NCBI GenBank assembly: GCA_964016885.1
Contig: OZ024750.1
Location: 46,996,001 to 47,060,000 of the forward strand
DNA from: Eledone cirrhosa
Lineage: Eukaryota
Direction: 5' to 3'
DNA: 64,000 bases
The notes below the pieces were generated by a model. The model did no database searches and was not told the DNA's origin. It was given only the letters and a program-made list of their open reading frames with translations. The translations under genes were made by a program, and so were the position numbers. Below are positions 722 to 64,000 of the stretch, piece by piece (within the stretch, counting starts at the first letter, position 1; each line of letters begins with the position of its first letter).

Positions 722-759
722 TATATATATTCTTTATATTTGTATCAGACATATTGCTG

Positions 760-1180
760 CCGTGGAGTCAGTGCTGCTGTACTGGTCGGTAACTTGGACA
801 CTGACCATGAGACTCACTCAGATGGAGGATGGGTGCTACACAATAATGCTGATGATAGCTCTGAACATTAATCAGTATACACCGAGGATGAAAAACTTAG
901 AGCTGAATGGGAGCCTCCTAAAAGTCAGCTCAAAAGTGACACAGAGGAGACTGAGGTTGGCTGGAAATGCACACCGACATCCAGAGTCGACGTTGCAGAC
1001 AGTGGTCCTGTGGGAGACCCTACATGGACACACTGGAAGAGGAAGACCAAGGTTAACGTATGTTGATGCCCCAAGGACAGACAGTGGTCTGTTGGAGACG
1101 CAGGACATGGCAGCGATAATGAGGGACAGATACCGCTGGAGAGAACTCGTCCATGAATCTTGGGAATTTTACACGCCCTA
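760..1180 (+). mobile_element. RTE-type LINE 3' fragment (C-terminus of the RT ORF), 5'-truncated
   Basis: Translation VESVLLYWSVTWTLT...MLMIALNI...QRRLRLAGNAHRH...GRGRPRLTYVD...DRYRWRELV is a typical RTE C-terminus; close paralogue at 45909-46324. Confidence 0.88.
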
Positions 1181-11919: not shown

Positions 11920-12507
<588 letters not shown>

Positions 12508-12511
<4 letters not shown>

Positions 12512-13208
12512 AAATAACGAAACGAAATTAAATTTCGTTTCGTTTGTAACTCACTTTTGTATGACTGACGCTCAAACAATTAAGTCAAAGATGTACATCC
12601 ATATATGTATACTGAAATACTAGTATGTATATGAATACACACACGTATACATATGTAGATGTACCAAGTTTTTTTTCACTGATCACTTTACTGTGAGTGG
12701 CCAGCTATTCTGTATGTAAACACACAGACAAACCGGTTTTTAGAGTCATACTGGTTTTTGAGGAAACACCTTTCCTCTATTCTCCAGAAAGCCAGACAAG
12801 GAATATTGAACTAGTTTCGTTGTTGTTACAACTCATCAGCAATATTTACCTATCTTCCGGCCTCTCTAGAGAATCGTAAAAGCACATATCGCTATATGCT
12901 TTTTCTATGAAAATTAGTAGTGGGCAGACCAACTTGCATAGAGTGTGAGTAAGTACCGGTTCAACGGAGACGATAAAAACAAATAACGAAACGAAATTAA
13001 ATTTCGTTTCGTTTGTAACTCACTTTTGTATGACTGACGCTCAAACAATTAAGTCAAAGATGTACATCCATATATGTATACTGAAATACTAGTATGTATA
13101 TGAATACACACACGTATACATATGTAGATGTACCAAGTTTTTTTTCACTGATCACTTTACTGTGAGTGGCCAGCTATTCTGTATGTAAACACACAGACAA
13201 ACCGGTTT
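12508..13208 (-). mobile_element. Family B hammerhead element: 1.5 tandem units of a 469-bp monomer
   Basis: 12508-12739 is repeated directly at 12977-13208; homologous to 32617-33481 and 49452-50190. Confidence 0.9.
12802..12846 (-). ncRNA. Minimal type I hammerhead ribozyme (family B)
   Basis: Reverse complement reads AATATTG CTGATGA GTTGT aaca ACAAC GAAA C ta GTT CAATATT. Confidence 0.85.
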
Positions 13209-14329: not shown

Positions 14330-14800
14330 GTCTTAGGGATGGGTGTGTTTGGCATTATCTTTAAATTTGTAAAGGGGAAATATTCTAAAGTTTGGATGAT
14401 TTTGGGCAGCACAAGTATGAATGTGTTCACTCAGTGGTATTTTTCTGTATTCCCGTATTTTAATTTTGGATCTATGGACAGTGATGCGTTGGCGGGGGAT
14501 GTTTTTGGTCTGGCCTATGTATTGTTCTCGACAACCTGAGCAAGTTAATACATATATTAGATTTTCTGATGCGCATGTGAAATTGTGTTTTACTATAAAA
14601 CGTTGTCGTTCTTTGAAATAGAATTCCGAACCCTCTATTGGGTTGATTTGTATGCCACAGTTGCGTATATCGCATTTTATTTACTGTGGGTTTCGTTATT
14701 GTGGTTGGCAGTACTTTGGCATGTGGTAGGATGTTTTTCATTGACTTAGATTGTCTTTTGCTCTTTATGATATCGTTTGTTCGAATGAATTGGTTCATTT
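14330..14800 (-). pseudogene. Penelope-like retroelement GIY-YIG endonuclease relic (Neptune-like), frameshifted
   Basis: Manual minus-strand translation gives IIKSKRQSKSMKNIL..KPTV/KC..FIVKHNFTCASENLIYVLTCSGCREQYIGQTK..RQRITVHRSKI..PLSEH. This shows the GIY-YIG motif pair, CxxC..H..H, and an upstream Cys-containing linker. Confidence 0.88.
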
Positions 14801-16455: not shown

Positions 16456-16715
16456 ATGTATCAACCGATACTCAACTTCCTAGTTTCTCTATCTATCTCT
16501 ATCTATCTCTTTCTTTATTCCTCTCTCTATATATATTTCTCTCTGTTTCTTTACATGAAGTTCTTCTCTTTATCTATCTTTCTATATCTCTCTATTTAGT
16601 CACATGCATTTCTTCTCTTTCTTCGTTTCTCTTTCTTTCTTTCTCTCTTTCTTTTTAAAACTGTCCACAATATTTTTTACTGCCAAATCAACCTCCCAAA
16701 TGCAAGGTGATTGAA

Positions 16716-16863
16716 AGGTATGTCGTATCTATTTATTTATAAGACTGTTTATATTGTATTTTGTCTGAAGAAGGCATAACATATTGTTAATATGATATCC
16801 CTGAAATATATATAACGAAATAAATATGGTTTTATAAATATAGTTTCCATTTATTTAATATCA
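16716..16863 (+). mobile_element. Family A single arm with hammerhead (16757-16822)
   Basis: TATTTTGT CTGAAGA ... GAAA T ATAT ATA ACGAAATA; the 3' end abuts (TA)n at the same position as 12480. Confidence 0.85.
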
Positions 16864-21832: not shown

Positions 21833-23286
<1,454 letters not shown>

Positions 23287-26404: not shown

Positions 26405-26919
26405 TTTGAGTATATTTTGGATGTTTACCGACACCTCAGTATGCAGATTGGAGCACTCGACGAAGTACGCAGGTTGGTTTGTTTACTCCGGAGTAATGTA
26501 AAATAATTAAGTGAAATATGTAAAATTTGGCTTCGTTTATTATGAATTATAGATATACTGCTATATATATTTCGGTGACAGCCATCATTGGCTGTGAACT
26601 CTTCAGGTAGTCCGGATTGGTGTGGGAAAGACAGGTACACATGTTGTTGAAGTGTATTTTACTCCGTCACTACATCGATATGTCCAGCTCCTGGTTGTGT
26701 TCTTATTTCTCTGAGGAACTGAAATCAGAGAAATAACAACACAACCAGCAGCTGGACATATCGATGTATTGACGGAGTAAAACACACTTCCACAACATGT
26801 GTACCTGCCTTTCTCACACCAATTCGGACTGCCCGAAGAGGTCACAGCCAATGATGGTTGTCGCCGAAATATATATAGCAGTATATCTATAATTCATAAT
26901 AAACGAAGCAACATTTTAC

Positions 26920-26928
<9 letters not shown>
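26405..26928. mobile_element. Family F: head-to-head palindromic hammerhead element
   Basis: Arms ~26514-26714 and 26725-26925 with a tail on the left arm. Hammerheads at 26828-26882 (+: ACTGC CCGAAGA..GAAA T ATAT ATA GCAGT) and 26557-26611 (-: CTGAAGA core). Confidence 0.87.
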
Positions 26929-28128: not shown

Positions 28129-28630
28129 GTTGAAAGGACTTGACTGCTGTGTCTAGTTGTCGATAACCCTATTCACGCCACCGGAACGAAGCTGGTATAA
28201 TGTGTGTATTTTTAGTAAATACAGCACGTGTTACTAGCCAGTCGCTGATTTGATGCGTAAACACAGATGGTTGGACCTCTTCCTTGTTGAAAATACAGGA
28301 TCTGGCTTCTGTCGTGTACCAATCAATTAATTCGTGAATGATATTTCTTTAATGGAATATATACAAGGAAGATTAATAATTTTACAAGGTATCTATTTTT
28401 GAAGCTCTAGTTAAACTTTATTTAGTTACCTACCTAACTATATGTGCTTACACACTTTTACAGATTATCCCCTGTGATTGTTTCATATGTTTATTTATAG
28501 GTCAATCAAATTTTAGTTGATATAAAATGCTCGGATCTATTCATTAGAATCTTGGAGCATATTTTACGGGTGATTAGGCGCATGTCTTTCGGCCATGACA
28601 CCCTTAATTTAATTTAATTTATCTTAATTT
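28129..28630 (+). mobile_element. Family G single arm
   Basis: Homologous to 43860-44170 (direct) and 43495-43860 (inverted); TA on both flanks. Confidence 0.78.
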
Positions 28631-32225: not shown

Positions 32226-32526
32226 TCTCTTTGAAAATCTAGATGATATAATTCTTGAAACCTAAACATCAATTCATCCTAAGCTTATAAGCTTATATGA
32301 AATGATCGAATGAAGATTTGTGGACCAACAAGGGTTACTATAATCTCTTCGATCTCTAGGAAACATATGTAACCCGACAATCTGTGGATAACAGGAACTG
32401 AAGACCCATAGACTACATACTAAATAAGTTCAACCCAAGGACATAAATATAACTCATATGATGTTTAATTCATGTTGTATTGTAAAAACTATATCAATAC
32501 TGAAATATGTGTATGTATATGTATGC

Positions 32527-32616
<90 letters not shown>

Positions 32617-32621
<5 letters not shown>

Positions 32622-33481
32622 CAAATAACGAAACGAAATTAAATTTCGTTTCGCTTCTAACTCACTTTTGTATGACTGACGCTTAAACAATTAAGTTAAA
32701 GTGTACATCTACATATGTATACGGAAGTACTAGTATGCATATAAATACACACATGTATACATATGTACATGTACCGTGTTTTTCACTAGACACTTTACAG
32801 TGAGTGTCCAGCTAGTCTGTATGTAAACAAACAGACGAACCGGGTTTTAAAGTCATACGAGTTTTCAAGGAAACACACTTCCTCTATTCTCCAGAGAGCC
32901 AGACAGGAATATTGGACTAGCTGGACACTCACTGTAAAGTGTCTAGTGAAAAACTCGGTACATGTACATATGTATACATGTGTGTATTTATATGCATACT
33001 AGTACTTCCGTATACATATGTAGATGTACACTTTAACTTAATTGTTTAAGCGTCAGTCATACAAAAGTGAGTTAGAAGCGAAACGAAATTTAATTTCGTT
33101 TCGTTATTTGTTTTTATCGTTTCCGCTGAACCGGCGCGTACAATTACTCACGTTCTATGCAAATTAGTCTGCCCACTACTGATTTTCATAGAAAAAGCAT
33201 ATAACGATATGTGCTTTTACAATTCTCCAGAGAAGCCGGAAGATAGGTATATATTGCTGATGAGATGTAATAACATCGAAACTAGTCCAATATTCCTGTC
33301 TGGCTCTCTGGAGAATAGAGGAAGTGTGTTTCCTTGAAAACTCGTATGACTTTACAACCCGGTTCGTCTGTTTGTTTACATACAGACTAGCTGTACACTC
33401 ACTGTAAAGTGTCTAGTGAAAAACTCGGTACATGTACATATGTATACATGTGTGTATTTATATGCATACTTTAACTTAATT
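32617..33481. mobile_element. Family B element: inverted arm plus 1.2 tandem 470-bp units, in (TA)n
   Basis: Minus arm 32617-32914; plus arm 32915-33481, with CTAGCTG.ACACTCACTG recurring at 32917 and 33387. Confidence 0.92.
33251..33293 (+). ncRNA. Minimal type I hammerhead ribozyme with canonical GUC site (cleavage predicted after 33287)
   Basis: ATATTG CTGATGA GATGT aata ACATC GAAA C ta GTC CAATAT: all core nucleotides present, stems I and II perfect. Confidence 0.9.
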
Positions 33482-43492: not shown

Positions 43493-44176
43493 CCTAAATT
43501 AAGATAAATTAAATTAATTTAATCTAAATCAAAATTATGGGTGTCATGCGAGAAAGACATGCGCCATATCACCCGGAAAATAAGCTCTAAGATTCTAACG
43601 AGTAGGTCCGAGCATTTTATAATAACTAGAAGTTGATTAACATATAAAGAAACATGAAAAATCACAGGAGATAATTTTGACAAGTGTGTAACTACACATA
43701 GCTAGGTAGGTAACTAAATAAATAAAGTTGACCAGCACTTCAAAAATAGATACATTATAATATGATTAATCTTCCCTGTATATATTCCATTAAAGAAATA
43801 TATTTCACCAATTAATCGGAAGGTAAACCACGGAAGGGGAGACTTGGATTTTCAACAAATGTGTGTATTTATAGTAAATACAACACGTGCTGGCCAGTCG
43901 CAGATTTGAACTTGAAGTGTAAACACGGATCGCTGGAACTTCTTCCTTGTTGAAAATCCAAGTCTCCACTTCCGTGGTTTAACTTCCGATTAATTGGTGA
44001 AATATATGTCTTCAATGGAATATATACAGGGAAGATTAATCATATTATAAGGTATCTATTTTTGAAGTTCTGGTCAACTTTATTTAGTTGCCTACCTAAC
44101 TATGTGTGGTTACACACTTGTAAAAATTATCTCCTGTGATTATTCATGTTTATTTATATGTTAATCGACTTCTACT

Positions 44177-44180
<4 letters not shown>
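43493..44180. mobile_element. Family G palindromic element in (TA)n
   Basis: Arms ~43615-43859 and ~43947-44180 with an ~87-bp spacer; the left arm carries a ~120-bp extension. No intact CUGANGA core found. Confidence 0.85.
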
Positions 44181-44992: not shown

Positions 44993-46324
44993 ATCAAATC
45001 CTCTGTCGCCTTCAGTGTATTTGTCAGTAAAACTATGTCGTCAGCAAATTCAGCATCCGATATATTTTTTGCTTTAACTCTCCTGATCTGAGCCGGTGTT
45101 ACAGAAAAGGCAGAGTCCTGGTGTTTCTCCAGTGCAAGGCGCATACAATAGTCCACTACGATGAGAAAAAGGCCGGGAGCCAATGTAACTCCCTGGAGCA
45201 CCCCAGCCAGTATCTCAAAGAACTATGTCATCCCATCAGTTGTAATGACTTGGGCTTTGGTGTTGGTGTAGAGCAGTGATATCAGGTCCACTATCTTCTT
45301 GGGGATTCCATAAGCCTGTAAGATCTTCATCAGACAGTGACGGTCCACAGAATCAAAGGCCTTCCTAAAGTCAATGAAAACCATGACCGCAGGAAGGCAC
45401 TTTGCTCTAGCTCCCTCTAATATCCACCTCAGCATCAGGATGTGACTAGTAGTTGATCCACCCTCTCTGAAGCCGTTCTGGTTGTCCCTGAGCTTCTTCT
45501 CCATCTCGGGATGAATCCTGTTAATAATCATCCTGTTGAGGGTATTTTCCACACGTGACGTCAGTGAGATTCCCCTGTAGCGGTTGGTGTTAGAGAGATC
45601 TACCTTCTTTGGCACTGGATTTGATGCAGAAAGGTGAGACTGTGTCGATGAGTGTGGGGCTGAGAATGAATGAGAGTAAGACAAAATGTCTGGTAGAGAA
45701 TGTTGAGAAGCCAGACGGGATTACTAATGTAGGCGGGAAGCCGCTGGAATTAGTTGAGGAATTCCTGTATTTGGAACCACAGATTGGGAATACGGAAGCT
45801 GATGTGGTTGAGAGGAAGAGCAAAGCGTGGTCTGCGTGGCACAGCTTGAGATCGGTATAGACGTCGGAGCTTCGCGAAGACCTGAAGTTACGCCTCTTCA
45901 TTTCTGTAGTGGAGTCTGTGCTGCTATACAGGTCTGAGACTTGGACACTGACCAAGAAACTCACCCAGATGGTGGATGGGTGCAATACGAGAATGCTGAG
46001 GATGGCTCTGAACATTAATCACTATACACTGATGATGAAGCCTTCAGAGCTGTATGGGAGCCTATCAAAAGTCAGCTCAAAGTTACACAGAGGAGACTGA
46101 GGTTAGTTGGACATGCTCATCGACATCCAGAGTTGATTTTGCACTCAGTGCTCCTGTGGGAGACCCTACATGGACACACTGGAATACGAAGTCCAAGGTT
46201 AAGTTATGTTGATGCCCTAAGGTCAGACACTGGTCTGGTGGAGACGGAGGACATGGCATCGATAATGGGGGACAGATATCGCTGGAGAGAACTCGTCCAT
46301 GGATCTCGGGAATTTGACCCGCAC
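44993..46324. mobile_element. RTE-type LINE, 5'-truncated, with a 5' inversion
   Basis: Minus arm 45620->44993 encodes PVPKK..YRGISL..QNGFR..FIDFRKAFDSV..LQG..LAP.LF..EFADDIVLL. Plus arm 45617->46324 continues GLRMNESKTK..FLYL..VESVLLY..RWRELV. Stops and frameshifts are present. Confidence 0.93.
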
Positions 46325-46397
46325 TATATATATATATATATATATGTGTGATACTGCGTTATTCTTGCGCGCACACATATATAGATATTAATATATA

Positions 46398-46848: not shown

Positions 46849-47244
46849 GGAAAGTTATATTTAAATTGTTGGGTTACAACTAGTAAATATTTATAACTGA
46901 TATAAAAGCACTCAACAAGTATTTGGAGTATATTTGCGATATTAAATAAATGGAAACTATATTTATAAAACCATATTTATTTCATTATATATATTTCAGG
47001 GATATCATATTAACAATATGTTATGCCTTCCTCAGACAACATACAATATAGACAGTTTTATAGATAAATAGATTTGACATACAAGTCGATGTTGAACGGT
47101 ATGTCAAATCTATTTATCTATAAAACTGTCTATATTGTATTTTGTTTGAGGAAGGCATAACATATTGTTAATATGATATCCCTGAAATATATATAATGAA
47201 ATAAATATGGTTTTATAAATATAGTTTCCATTTATTTAATATCG

Positions 47245-47279: not shown

Positions 47280-47548
47280 AGGAGGTGAGTTTTATTGTAG
47301 TACAATAAAGCAATGCAGATATCGCATAAGTACCACTCTACAAGTTGTAGGACTGGAGTATAAATAATATATAAGATCAAAAGATGATTAAAAGAGTTCC
47401 ATGTATTTTATTATGCGCATATCATGTCTCCCTATTTTATCTGACGAAAACGCAAATGTTATTGCATGATGATATTTGTTTTTGAAATGCGCATATTAAA
47501 ATACATGGAACTCTTTTAACCATCTTTTGATGTTATTTATTATATATA

Positions 47549-48839: not shown

Positions 48840-50348
<1,509 letters not shown>

Positions 50349-53699: not shown

Positions 53700-54262
53700 T
53701 ACGTGATGCCCCCACAGCCCCCAACAGGCCCGGCGGACAGGATGTAGAAAGCGTTCCCACGGAGGACGGCAAGGGAGACGCGCTGGAAAAGACACTCCAG
53801 CTTATTGGGTTCTCACCTGTGGCTGGCCAGCTCAGAGCCTATGGTGGTGAGTAGGGAGGTAGCCCTGGGGCCGAGGACACCAGAAGTCTCCACTGTCAAA
53901 GATACAACGGCAAACCTGTCAGAGATTGACCGGTATTTGAGGAGCTTGGTTTCCTCAGCCCGACGTGTAGCAGAACCTGGGTTAGTGGCAGAGTGCACCT
54001 GGTTGCGGCTGCAGAAAGTGTCGGTGCAAGTAGGATCCCAGACGAGGGGTTTGCCACCGCGGAACGGAAATATGGTCATGCCATATGACCATTTGCTGTC
54101 CGCTCGGTTCAGCCCCACCGGCTCGAGCTGGGAAGGAGTGCCCGCAGCTTCCAAGCCATGCTTTATGACCTCGTTCAGGGCAGCATGGCGTGGAAGGCGG
54201 CCGGCACTGTGGCGACAGCAAATCAGGTGGAGGCTGAAAGAATCCACGGTGGATCCGCAGCG
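53700..54262 (-). mobile_element. CRE-like non-LTR retrotransposon 3' fragment (Zn knuckle end plus restriction-like endonuclease)
   Basis: HLICC..GRLPRHAALNEVIK..LEPVGLNRADSK..GMTIFPFRGGKPLVWD.TC..AEETK..KY..VETSGVLG, then after a frameshift FQRVSLAVLRGNA. GC-rich island; the catalytic RPD is mutated. Confidence 0.85.
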
Positions 54263-54329
54263 ACATTGGTGTGGCTTTTACTTGTGGTGCTTACTTGCTT
54301 ACCCTCCACATACACAGACACAAGCTCAC

Positions 54330-54420
<91 letters not shown>

Positions 54421-54426
<6 letters not shown>

Positions 54427-55046
54427 GTATTGAAGTTTGCTTGAAGCATTGTGGAATAATAAGTAAATATCTTTAAGTCGTTTGGAAGCCTCGACAATGC
54501 AAATGGGTAAATCTCCGGGTAACAAGATCCGGTGGTGGAGAGATGTAAGTGGGTGTACGTTGAGATGCGTGGTGTGTATAACATGTGTAAGATGTGTAGA
54601 AGAATGAGGGGAAGAGTATAAAGGATAAAATAAAAATAACAACACAAGAGAGAGTTACTTTGGAGGAGATTTAATAGTCCCTATATATTTCGGATTCACA
54701 TCCATCAACTGGGTTTTTTTTCAACAAACAACAAACAGCGGAGGACGCGTTTCGCACCTGTCCGACAGACAACCTTTCCCCCACCCCGGAAAAAACCCCA
54801 GTGGATGGATGTGAATCCGAAATATATAGGGACTATTAAATCTCTCCCAATGTAACTCTTTCGTGTTGTTATTTTTATTTTATCCTTTATACTCTTTCCT
54901 TCATTCTTCTACACATCTTACACATCTTATACACACCACGCATCTCAACGTACACCCACTTACATCTCTCTCTCCACCACTGGATCTTGTTACCCGGAGA
55001 TTTAGCCATTTGCATTGTCAAGGCTTCCAAACGACTTAAATATATT

Positions 55047-55049
<3 letters not shown>
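54421..55049. mobile_element. Family J palindromic element in (TA)n
   Basis: Arms ~54462-54720 and ~54790-55049, ~70-bp spacer, ~40-nt left tail. Confidence 0.88.
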
Positions 55050-55149: not shown

Positions 55150-56172
55150 ATATGAAAACAGGGAGAAAAAGATGATTATTAGGAAGAAAAATATTTTTCT
55201 TTCCTTTTTATTTTTCTCTCACTTTTTTCTGGGTTAGAAAATGATTAAAACGAAATATTTTACTTTGTGTGAAGTGTTAAGGTATTAGTTGATTTATTTA
55301 TTATTTAACAATTGCATTTACGTATTTATTTATATATTTAATAATTGTCTATTAACGGTTTCAGCATTTTTATGCATTATCAAATGATAATATTATGTAT
55401 TGGTGTAGAATGGTGGTGTTGGATATGTTAAATATATGGTACAAAAAGAATAATGTTATTTATAAACAAAGTTTATGTAGTGAAAAGAAAAAAAGAAAGA
55501 AAAGGAGCGTAATGTGGAGCATAATAAGGCAATGTGAAAGAAAAAATAATGTTATTTACAGGCATAGTTCTTGAATATAAGCAGATCAAAATGTGTTAAT
55601 ATAAAAAGAGTGCCTAGTTCATCCATGATGGAGGTAAATGGTGGACTGGGGTTTGATATGATTTCCCTTTTTAGAGAGTTAATATGCATGGGGGAGGGGG
55701 GTAATTCAGGGTGGGAGAGAAATGGTAAATGGTATTTAATTTATTTAAGAAAAAGGATTAGGTAGGTTGTGGGGAAGTAACTCTTTAGAGATACATAGGT
55801 ATTTGTAAATGTTTCATTGTTCGTTCCAGTTTTAGTTTAATCCGAGGTTTAGTGCATTAAGTAGAGGTTTGAATTTGTTAATGAAATACGTTTCCTTATC
55901 GGTACGATGGATGGAAGTAGCGTTGTCTATGTATTTGTAAATGGGGAACATTTTAAAGTTTGGATGTTGGTTGGGTCCCCATTTGGCGTTATGTTCACTA
56001 AACGCAATATTTGTGTATTCCTGTATTTTGATTTGTGATTTATGGACGCTCATACGTTGTCGGAGGCTGTTTTTGTCTGTCCTATGTAGTGCTCTTGACA
56101 ACCTGAGCAGGTCAAAACATAGATTAGGTTTACAGATGCACATGTAAAGTTGTGTTTAACTTTGAAATGTTG

Positions 56173-60588: not shown

Positions 60589-61219
60589 TAGAAGTTATAT
60601 TTAATTTGTTGGATACAACAAGCAAATATTTTTATAACTGATATTAAGCACTCAACAAATGTTTGGAGTAAAAATACATTAACAAATGGAAACTATATTT
60701 ATAAAACCATATTTATTTCATCATACATATTTCAAGGACACCAAAGCAAATTATGGTGCGCTTTCATCAGATAAAATATAATATAGATCAGTTTTATAAA
60801 CAGATATTGACATACCCTTAAAAGAATGCGACCATGTCGGTTGGAAAATCTCGGATAGTGATGTTACTAATTTTATTATTGTTCTATTATGCAAATTAGT
60901 GTCGGAGAGGTTTAAATCGCATACATTTAAATTAAATTAAGCCGGCTTAATTTAAATGTATGGGATTTAAACCTCTCCGACACTAATTTGCATAATAGAC
61001 CAATAATAAAATTAGTAATCCCACTATCCGGGAGCTTCCAACAGACATGGTCGCATTCTTTTAAGGGTATCTCAATATTTGTTTATAAAACTGATCTATA
61101 CTATATTTCATCTGATGAAAGCGCACCATAATTTGCTTCGGTGTCCTTGAAATATGTATAATGAAATATGTATAATGAAATACATATGGTTTTATAAATA
61201 TAGTTTCCATTTGTTAATG

Positions 61220-61221
<2 letters not shown>
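60589..61221. mobile_element. Family A (diverged subfamily) long palindrome
   Basis: Arms ~60675-60943 and 60944-61221 centred on TTAAGCCGGCTTAA; same tail as 12019. Confidence 0.9.
61103..61169 (+). ncRNA. Minimal type I hammerhead ribozyme (family A subfamily)
   Basis: ATATTTCAT CTGATGA aAGCGCACC..GGTGTCCTt GAAA T atgt ATA ATGAAATAT: perfect 9-bp stem I. Confidence 0.82.
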
Positions 61222-61310
<89 letters not shown>

Positions 61311-61848: not shown

Positions 61849-62191
61849 CGGTAAAAGTGAGGGAGGTGATATGAAGAGATATAATAAGGGAGATACTTGT
61901 CAGTGTAATAAAATGGCATGATAGGGTATTGGCAACATTGAAATACAGTAGAGTTAGACGGGCGAAATAGATGAATCGTTGGAATATGAATTAAAGAATA
62001 CAAAATAAAATAAGAATAGAAAATAAAAAGATAATGATGACAGACGGGTGATTTAGGTTGGGGTATTTTGAAAGTATTATCCTATAGATGTGGTAATGCT
62101 ATGAGAGGTTGTGACTCTAAAAGGTTGAGGGACTGTCGATTGAGTTAATGTCCAATTGGTCAACTGAGAGTTAATTGTGTTCATGATGTGT

Positions 62192-64000
62192 AAAGCTGGT
62201 TTGTTGGCGACAGTATAGTAGACATTTTAAAGTGGGTTTGTTGGCGTCAATATAGTAGACCTTTTAAAGTGGGTTTGTTGACGTCAGTATAGTAGACATT
62301 TTAAAGTGGGTTTAATGACGTCAGTATAGTAGACATTTTAAAGTGGGTTTGTTGACGTCAGTATAGTAGACATTTTAAAGTGGGTTTGTTGACGTCAGTA
62401 TAGTAGACATTTTAAAGTGGGTTTAATGACGTCAGTATAGTAGACATTTTAAAGTTGGTTTCTTGGCGTCAGTATAGTAGACATTTTAAAGTGGGTTTGT
62501 TGACGTCAGTATAGTAGACATTTTAAAGTGGGTTTGTTGGCGTCAGTATAGTAGACATTTTAAAGTTGGTTTGTTGGCGTCAGTATAGTAGACATTTTAA
62601 AGTAGGTTTGTTGGCGTCAGTATAGTAGACATTTTAAAGTTGGTTTGTTGGCGTCAGTATAGTAGACATTTTAAAGTGGGTTTGTTGGCGTCAGTATAGT
62701 AGACATTTTAAAGTGGGTTTGTTGGCGTCAGTATAGTAGACATTTTAAAGTTGGTTTGTTGACGTCAGTATAGTAGACATTTTAAAGTTGGTTTCTTGAC
62801 GTCAGTATAGTAGACATTTTAAAGTTGGTTTGTTGGCGTCAGTATAGTAGACATTTTAAAGTTGGTTTGTTGACGTCAGTATAGTAGACATTTTAAAGTT
62901 GGTTTGTTGACGTCAGTATAGTAGACATTTTAAAGTTGGTTTGTTGGCGTCAGTATAGTAGAGATTTTAAAGTTGATTTGTTGATGTCAGTATAGTAGAC
63001 ATTTTAAAGTTGGTTTGTTGACGTCAGTATAGTAGACATTTTAAAGTGGGTTTGTTGACGTCAGTATAGTAGACATTTTAAAGTTGGTTTGTTGACGTCA
63101 GTATAGTAGACATTTTAAAGTGGGTTTCTTGGCGTCAGTATAGTAGACATTTTAAAGTTGGTTTGTTGGCGTCAGTATAGTAGACATTTGAAAGTTGGTT
63201 TGTTGGCGTCAGTATAGTAGACATTTTAAAGTGGGTTTGTTGGCGTCAGTATAGTAGACATTTTAAAGTGGGTTTGTTGGCGTCAGTATTGTAAACATTT
63301 TAAAGTGGGTTTGTTGGCGTCAGTATAGTAGACATTTTAAAGTTGGTTTGTTGGCGTCAGTATAGTAAACATTTTAAAGTGGGTTTGTTGGCGTCAGTAT
63401 AGTAGACATTTTAAAGTTGGTTTGTTGACGTCAGTATAGTAGACATTTTAAAGTTGGTTTCTTGACGTCAGTATAGTAGACATTTTAAAGTTGGTTTGTT
63501 GGCGTCAGTATAGTAGACATTTTAAAGTTGGTTTGTTGACGTCAGTATAGTAGACATTTTAAAGTTGGTTTGTTGACGTCAGTATAGTAGACATTTTAAA
63601 CTTGGTTTGTTGGCGTCAGTATAGTAGAGATTTTAAAGTTGATTTGTTGATGTCAGTATAGTAGACATTTTAAAGTTGGTTTCTTGACGTCAGTATAGTA
63701 GACATTTTAAAGTTGGTTTGTTGGCGTCAGTATAGTAGACATTTTAAAGCTGGTTTGTTGACGTCAGTATAGTAGACATTTTAAAGTGGGTTTCTTGGCG
63801 TCAGTATAGTAGAGATTTTAAAGTTGATTTGTTGACGTCAGTATAGTAGACCTTTTAAAGTGGGTTTCTTGGCGTCAGTATAGTAGACATTTTAAAGTTG
63901 GTTTGTTGACGTCAGTATAGTAGACATTTTAAAGTGGGTTTCTTGGCGTCAGTATAGTAGACATTTTAAAGTTGGTTTGTTGGCGTCAGTATAGTAGACA
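62192..64000. repeat. 37-bp tandem satellite (~48 units, runs off the window)
   Basis: Unit AGTATAGTAGACATTTTAAAGT(G/T)GGTTTGTTG(G/A)CGTC, with no spacers. Confidence 0.98.

Follow-up and report, generated by a model that had tools for sequence, protein, structure and literature searches.

The 64-kb window (the whole stretch of Eledone cirrhosa DNA that was analysed, 64,000 nucleotides) is AT-rich animal DNA with many microsatellites and at least 12 copies of a SINE-like repeat of about 190 nt. It holds three insertions (c1, c2 and c3, found with the doubled unit as search query) of a repeat unit, here called B, of 469-470 nt and about 36% GC. At c2 the period is 470 (32917/33387), with 89 of 96 positions matching at this offset; the mismatches fall at a deletion in the second unit, and other offsets within 465-474 give 11-37 matches. 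At c1 the period is 469 (12509/12978), and here 231/231 positions are identical. The unit is non-coding: if it is circularised and both strands are considered, ATG-started ORFs reach at most 42 aa in c2 and 23 aa in c1. An earlier sequence-only reading of the locus had named both periods, two hairpins in the monomer (33079-33103 and about 33192-33218), the lack of coding capacity and one hammerhead per unit, and all of these were borne out, the hammerhead being of type I. It had also described the locus as a tandem of about 470 nt. The period stands, but positions 32615-32920 form an inverted, 5'-truncated copy, direct tandem repetition covers only 1.27 units, and just one hammerhead is complete (Table 1).

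Beyond the long 3' end, the tandem runs through a short spacer and then re-enters the sequence that precedes the ribozyme. This closure had been claimed for all three copies. We find it, free of any ORF, in two of the three insertions, at 33117/33118 in c2 and at 12973-12978 on the minus strand in c1. It is not seen in c3 (49452-50190), where the forward arm opens just after the closure point, behind the fold-back junction. The 5-nt spacer is alike in c1 and c2 except for one base, these copies being about 11% diverged, and neither of the two arms (of five) that extend to the closure point has an ORF at the join. All five arms are wholly accounted for by the unit, and non-unit sequence was found in none (0/5).

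Table 1. Features of the B insertions and of other elements in the 64-kb window
Feature	Position	Strand	Remarks
(TA)n target microsatellite left of c2	32512..32617	.	another starts at 33481
c2 long ("tailed") arm, inverted 5'-truncated copy from predicted hammerhead cut site to long 3' end	32615..32920	-	99.3% to unit over 306 nt; abuts (TA)n
c2 head-to-head junction of arms	32915..32920	.	6-nt microhomology
c2 short arm, 1.27 units head to tail	32915..33481	+	32-nt deletion in second unit; ends at short 3' end in (TA)n
Complete unit (470 nt), start point arbitrary	32917..33386	+	36.6% GC, non-coding
Internal copy of 74-nt tail, between short (33043) and long (33117) 3' ends	33044..33117	+	holds invariant terminal hairpin 33079-33103
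Closure, 5 nt past long 3' end in tandem, leading to region upstream of ribozyme	33118..33122	+	found at none of the integrated ends; homologous in c1
Two predicted hairpins upstream of ribozyme	33153..33218	+	z -5.8; first carries octamer-like motif 33157-33164
Type I hammerhead, long extended helix I	33222..33315	+	z -5.5; Rfam HH9
Hammerhead helix I	33251-33256/33288-33293	+	structural reading
Hammerhead core	33257-33263	+	structural reading
Hammerhead helix II	33264-33277	+	structural reading
Hammerhead GAAA	33278-33281	+	structural reading
Palindromic minimal helix III	33281-33286	+	structural reading
Predicted cut	33287/33288	+	structural reading
Insertion c1, single long arm, 1.49 units, period 469	12509..13208	-	single hammerhead with GUU triplet and core at 12839; has the closure; 3' end lies in (TA)n
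Insertion c3 long arm, 22 nt upstream of hammerhead core to long 3' end	49452..49803	-	in (TA)n
Insertion c3 short arm, just past closure point to short 3' end	49804..50190	+	in (TA)n; no closure seen
Hammerhead family A, long helix II, head-to-head fold-backs	12020-12480, 46851-47200, 60592-61222, 16676-16860		one-sided tail about 80-90 nt
Further fold-back elements	54422-55049, 43493-44179 (with 28199-28630), 26514-26925, 47359-47548		several bounded by (TA)n; tails about 41 nt (54 kb) and about 129 nt (43 kb)
Two related broken GIY-YIG remnants, 75% identical	14333-14680, 55832-56155	-	PF01541 E 1.1e-5 and 0.0037 (the second below cut-off)
Element of about 218 nt, inverted pair, hammerhead-like core	22093-22310, 22950-23167		arms about 640 nt apart
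LINE remnants	45223-46326, 753-1180		RVT_1 at 45223-45720 minus, E 8e-16
37-bp minisatellite, 49 copies	62191-64000		runs off window end
GC-richer stretch, long open frames, possibly retroelement remnant	53748-54422		no Pfam match for one frame tested

Hammerhead core patterns are abundant in the window (19 against 2.6 expected). For the B ribozyme the best Rfam match is HH9 at 33239-33309 (E 3.4e-7, 34.2 bits, below the gathering threshold of 52), and at the gathering threshold the 64-kb window gives 0 matches. The HH9 match aligns the internal loop of helix I. This helix has 6-7 bp with the internal loop and a long extension, helix II has 4-5 bp and follows the core without a gap, and helix III consists of 2 bp inside a 6-nt palindrome. 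The two core halves are separated by 14 nt (helix II), compared with 17-36 nt in the other hammerhead families of the window. Features of the minimal hammerhead of Penelope-like elements (PLEs), namely a long helix II, a short helix I and an unpaired base after A9, do not occur in B, which has no extra base. By the distinction drawn by Cervera (2014; PMC4209133) between canonical metazoan type I and minimal PLE forms, the B motif is, as read from the sequence, a canonical metazoan type I hammerhead and not the minimal PLE form with its long helix II.

None of the four complete B hammerheads has lost its core, helix II or the helix III palindrome, and helix II shows a two-sided (compensatory) change. 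The cleavage triplet is GUC in c2 and GUU in c1 and c3. In the predicted monomer ensemble the probability of helix III is 0, and that of helix I in c2 is only 0.2-0.3. Since helix III does not form in this ensemble, a dimer would probably be required for B to cleave itself, in line with the description in PMC4209133.

The whole unit is predicted to fold strongly. As a circle, the ribozyme strand reaches -152/-158 kcal/mol (z -15.4/-10.6, 25 shuffles) and the opposite strands -115/-137 kcal/mol (z -4.7/-9.6), the antisense thus being far more stable than its shuffles as well; 66-67% of the bases are paired in the predicted B circles. Among 148 predicted consensus pairs in the three copies, 112 are invariant, 5 show two-sided and 17 one-sided changes, and 14 lose their pairing in one or more copies. 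When the observed substitutions were placed at random, folds as stable as the real one arose in 0/60 trials in nine of ten comparisons and in 3/60 in the tenth; these comparisons are not independent of one another, ignore indels, draw on only three copies and do not amount to a formal test. The differences between copies preserve the modelled whole-unit fold, which indicates selection on it. A 6-bp helix that brackets the closure and has a probability of 0.77-0.93 in the two circular ensembles was left out of the argument, since it is invariant and a linear RNA would form the same helix; a local linear fold pairs these bases differently.

The insertions have a PLE anatomy that the sequence-only reading had not described. 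Both c2 and c3 are head-to-head pairs of arms, so that two of the three insertions have an adjoining inverted, 5'-truncated copy, and in each pair one arm carries the long and the other the short 3' end, leaving a one-sided tail of 74 nt (c2) or 70 nt (c3). The short 3' ends of c2 and c3 fall on the same base and the three long 3' ends within 4 nt, a pattern of two fixed ends that two internal initiation sites would produce (PMC11167929). The 5' ends of the arms vary among insertions. In c2 the start of the long arm lies at most 6 nt from the predicted ribozyme cut, a position seen in one of five arms and blurred by microhomology; the c3 arms are joined through a microhomology of 2 nt. All five 3' ends abut (TA)n, and target duplications are indistinguishable within such a microsatellite.

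Repeats inside one insertion are 99-100% identical (231/231, 82/83, 200/201 and 279/280 aligned bases), whereas the insertions differ from each other at 8-14% of aligned bases (23/297, 31/292 and 41/293). Hence both arms of an insertion stem from one template, and we infer that the copies had diverged within the lineage that replicates. Arms of 1.27 and 1.49 units imply a template that was longer than one unit or circular. The template sequence also runs on past both the long and the short 3' ends, and together with the arms of more than one unit and the PLE-type ends this points to reverse transcription that started inside an RNA longer than the unit or circular. Head-to-tail repeats occur in two of the three B loci of the window and two hammerheads in direct tandem in none (0/3): c1 and c2 have one each, c3 has one per strand, and no arm (0/5) passes two predicted cut sites. 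Without two tandem hammerheads none of the three loci could release a monomer alone, and the three copies in the window are therefore probably dead-end daughters. As for the criterion that Li et al. (2026) give for an active retrozyme, at least two tandem ribozymes, no such array exists among the three B loci of the window.

The non-LTR retrozymes are a recognised class with representatives in molluscs. RNA circles have been demonstrated for the retrozymes of coral, mussel and axolotl (Cervera and de la Pena 2020, PMC7229834), where mobilisation by PLEs was also proposed (review PMC7761336), and a curation guide states that retrozymes may depend on PLEs (PMC8969392). Further support for PLE mobilisation has come from co-occurrence and from homology to pLTRs (Li, Clavereau and Pollet 2026, bioRxiv 10.64898/2026.07.22.740005), and the same preprint reports 8 of 9 predicted Xenopus retrozyme dimers as lacking in vitro cleavage. 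The circle model for PLE tandems was put forward by Cervera and de la Pena in 2014 (PMC4209133). B resembles the metazoan non-LTR retrozymes so described in its short non-coding head-to-tail unit, a GC content below 45%, one type I hammerhead with a weak palindromic helix III, a highly self-paired predicted circle, and the presence of PLEs in the same genome. With 470 nt the unit is longer than the 170-400 nt of the 2020 retrozymes (PMC7229834) and lies within the 51-972 bp of the 2026 preprint. Unlike the retrozymes described there, B has 1.27-1.49 units per multi-unit locus and never two tandem ribozymes in the window. Its inverted arms, one-sided tail and (TA)n targets are features not met in these accounts of retrozymes, and the words 'inverted' and 'microsatellite' are absent from the main text of PMC7229834. 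Cleavage and circles of B are predicted only.

The published pattern of PLE insertions comprises a partial tandem, an inverted 5'-truncated copy, a one-sided tail and a bias towards microsatellites (PMC8557442; PMC3846280), and the tail has been shown to be the RNA segment that separates two internal start sites, both target strands being cut and extended (PMC11167929). Insertions of B match those described for EN+ PLEs (Arkhipova 2013, PMC3846280; Craig 2021, PMC8557442; PMC11167929) in the partial tandem with its adjoining inverted 5'-truncated copy, the one-sided tail from two internal initiation sites, the AT-rich or (TA)n target and the microhomology junctions. They differ in a tail of 70-74 nt against 30-40 nt, in a canonical instead of a minimal hammerhead, and in coding content: the RT and GIY-YIG ORF of an autonomous EN+ PLE is not found in the B unit, and no arm (0/5) extends beyond the unit. 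Non-autonomous Chlamys PLEs such as MRC1 of Chlamydomonas (PMC8557442) are comparable to B as non-coding elements with pLTRs that make head-to-tail insertions via PLE machinery. As described there, Chlamys elements are mostly without hammerheads and have 3' sequence in common with an autonomous partner, whereas no partner PLE of B was found in the window, where comparison with ten other repeat or coding stretches gave a best E of 0.007 from short AT-rich matches.

We read B as a non-autonomous retrozyme that was copied by PLE enzymes from an RNA template longer than the unit, most probably a circle produced by the ribozyme, and we give this reading a probability of about 0.58. Judged by its sequence, B fits a non-LTR retrozyme: it is non-coding and low in GC, has a canonical type I hammerhead and a conserved predicted fold, and closes without an ORF in two copies. 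In the same window there are at least four other fold-back elements tailed on one side and two GIY-YIG remnants. The sequence-only reading had likewise taken B for a retrozyme copied from a circular or multimeric RNA. The retrozyme traits and a template of more than one unit speak for this part of it. Its further remark, that the unit closes on itself unlike a truncated PLE, does not demonstrate a circle, because partial tandems are a normal product of PLE insertion (PMC8557442) and a PLE reverse transcriptase could start inside unprocessed multi-copy RNA with no need for hammerhead cleavage (PMC11167929).

According to the retrozyme reading, source loci elsewhere, with at least two tandem hammerheads, would be transcribed, paired hammerheads would excise a monomer by means of their palindromic helix III, and the monomer would then be ligated. 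A GIY-YIG/RT protein might nick (TA)n on both strands, and reverse transcription might begin at two internal sites of the B RNA. The two cDNAs would end at various points, sometimes past one full round, and could then join head to head via microhomology. It might even be possible that c2 caught a B circle in the act of PLE mobilisation, with two start sites, one cDNA halting at the ribozyme cut or ligation site and the other rolling past more than one unit; we hold this more specific scenario only tentatively. If it were true, it would be direct anatomical evidence for retrozyme circles as templates of PLEs, and it would map a compact ORF-free cis element (the 74-nt tail with its terminal hairpin) for PLE recognition.

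A retrozyme class, a circle model and a link to PLEs are already published, and the modest addition of B is an insertion anatomy that ties a unit with a canonical hammerhead to PLE machinery. What moves animal retrozymes, and whether PLE tandems are of circular origin, is still argued from co-occurrence and pLTR homology. As B joins a canonical retrozyme hammerhead to a full PLE insertion anatomy in 470 nt, it offers a small substrate for the question of circular versus linear template and for the rule of two start sites. Among the main texts searched, mostly of open-access papers, there was no account of cephalopod or octopus retrozymes of this kind, or of a canonical-hammerhead retrozyme with inverted arms and a tail; for the giant squid genome 235 hammerhead matches are listed without analysis (PMC6962438). 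Exact-pattern scans of metagenome_contigs and genome_contigs, which are mostly prokaryotic collections, gave 0 matches. Among 24 listed rows of public sequencing runs, 20 (from 15 studies) contain all or some of the stretch, with shares of at least 0.2 under four organism labels (0.20-0.58, 0.34, 0.32 and 0.22) and no RNA run among those listed; these rows do not enter the argument.

Several observations speak against the preferred reading: two tandem hammerheads occur at none of the three loci, the Rfam match stays below the gathering score, helix III is absent from the monomer ensemble, two of the three copies have GUU in place of GUC, 8 of 9 predicted Xenopus dimers failed to cleave in vitro, and B has no significant sequence in common with the coding remnants of the window. 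PLE enzymes could also have mobilised B from a linear read-through multimer that was never cut; template jumping and insertion into a copy of B itself are variants of this route. The hammerhead would then be dispensable for copying, and no circle would accumulate. This is a possible explanation, though in our view an unlikely one. It draws on the work of Frangieh (2024; PMC11167929), where a PLE in vitro initiated internally on multi-copy RNA, unprocessed RNA was the dominant substrate, hammerhead mutants left insertion unaffected and RNA-seq ends were not seen at the cut site. In B a linear, partly cut dimer would explain every arm, since 0/5 arms pass two cut sites, and the weak helix III and the GUU triplet in two copies fit as well. 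Against it, the ribozyme core, helix II and the helix III palindrome have stayed intact in 4/4 hammerheads across copies that are 8-14% apart, a compensatory change included, and the 5' end of the c2 long arm lies no more than 6 nt from the predicted cut, a weak argument from one arm of five. A purely linear route would presumably also shorten the element in each round unless the tandem were regenerated.

Alternatively, B could belong to a coding PLE family as its pseudo-LTR region. The closed copies would then be a side branch with an internal deletion, and most copies would be ordinary truncated ends of PLEs. Every insertion hallmark of B is indeed of PLE type, Xenopus retrozymes have been related to pLTRs (Li et al. 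2026, bioRxiv 10.64898/2026.07.22.740005), only two of the five arms reach the closure point, and all of the evidence comes from one 64-kb window. We nevertheless regard this origin as improbable: the two arms that reach the closure point share the same ORF-free join despite a divergence of about 11%, non-unit sequence occurs in 0/5 arms, the hammerhead is of the canonical and not the minimal PLE type, and B has no similarity to the GIY-YIG remnants of the window. A fold-back or tandem duplication at the DNA level (MITE- or satellite-like) with no RNA step, for which the richness of the unit in palindromes and the good folding of its antisense strand might speak, is very improbable and is largely excluded by the truncation polarity, with fixed 3' ends and variable 5' ends. 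The one-sided tail, the intact ribozyme core, the difference in folding between the strands and the recurrence of this anatomy in other, unrelated hammerhead families of the window also speak against it.

Besides B, at least four elements of the window have this layout of fold-back plus tail, their tails measuring about 41 to 129 nt. Tail length differs by hammerhead or fold-back family and mostly exceeds the 30-40 nt given in the published descriptions cited above. The family A copy at 12020-12480 and the 3' end of c1 lie at a common (TA)15 run. The two GIY-YIG remnants are candidate mobilisers by sequence, and no link between them and B was found in the window. In the second remnant a stop is followed by non-coding DNA, which fits the C-terminal endonuclease of a Neptune-like PLE. 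A search for longer homologues returned 27 candidates, none at E<=0.001, and the clade of the remnant is thus assigned from motifs only.

An octamer motif occurs at 33157-33164, 49831-49838 and 60986-60993. It lies 100 nt upstream of the B core in two of three copies, with one change in c1, and in reversed orientation 126 nt upstream of a family A core; the 13-mer shared there has an E of 0.088 and is not significant. Newt satellite 2 is described as having an snRNA-type promoter (PMC2220036), and by analogy the octamer might be part of an internal promoter, which we note as a lead only.
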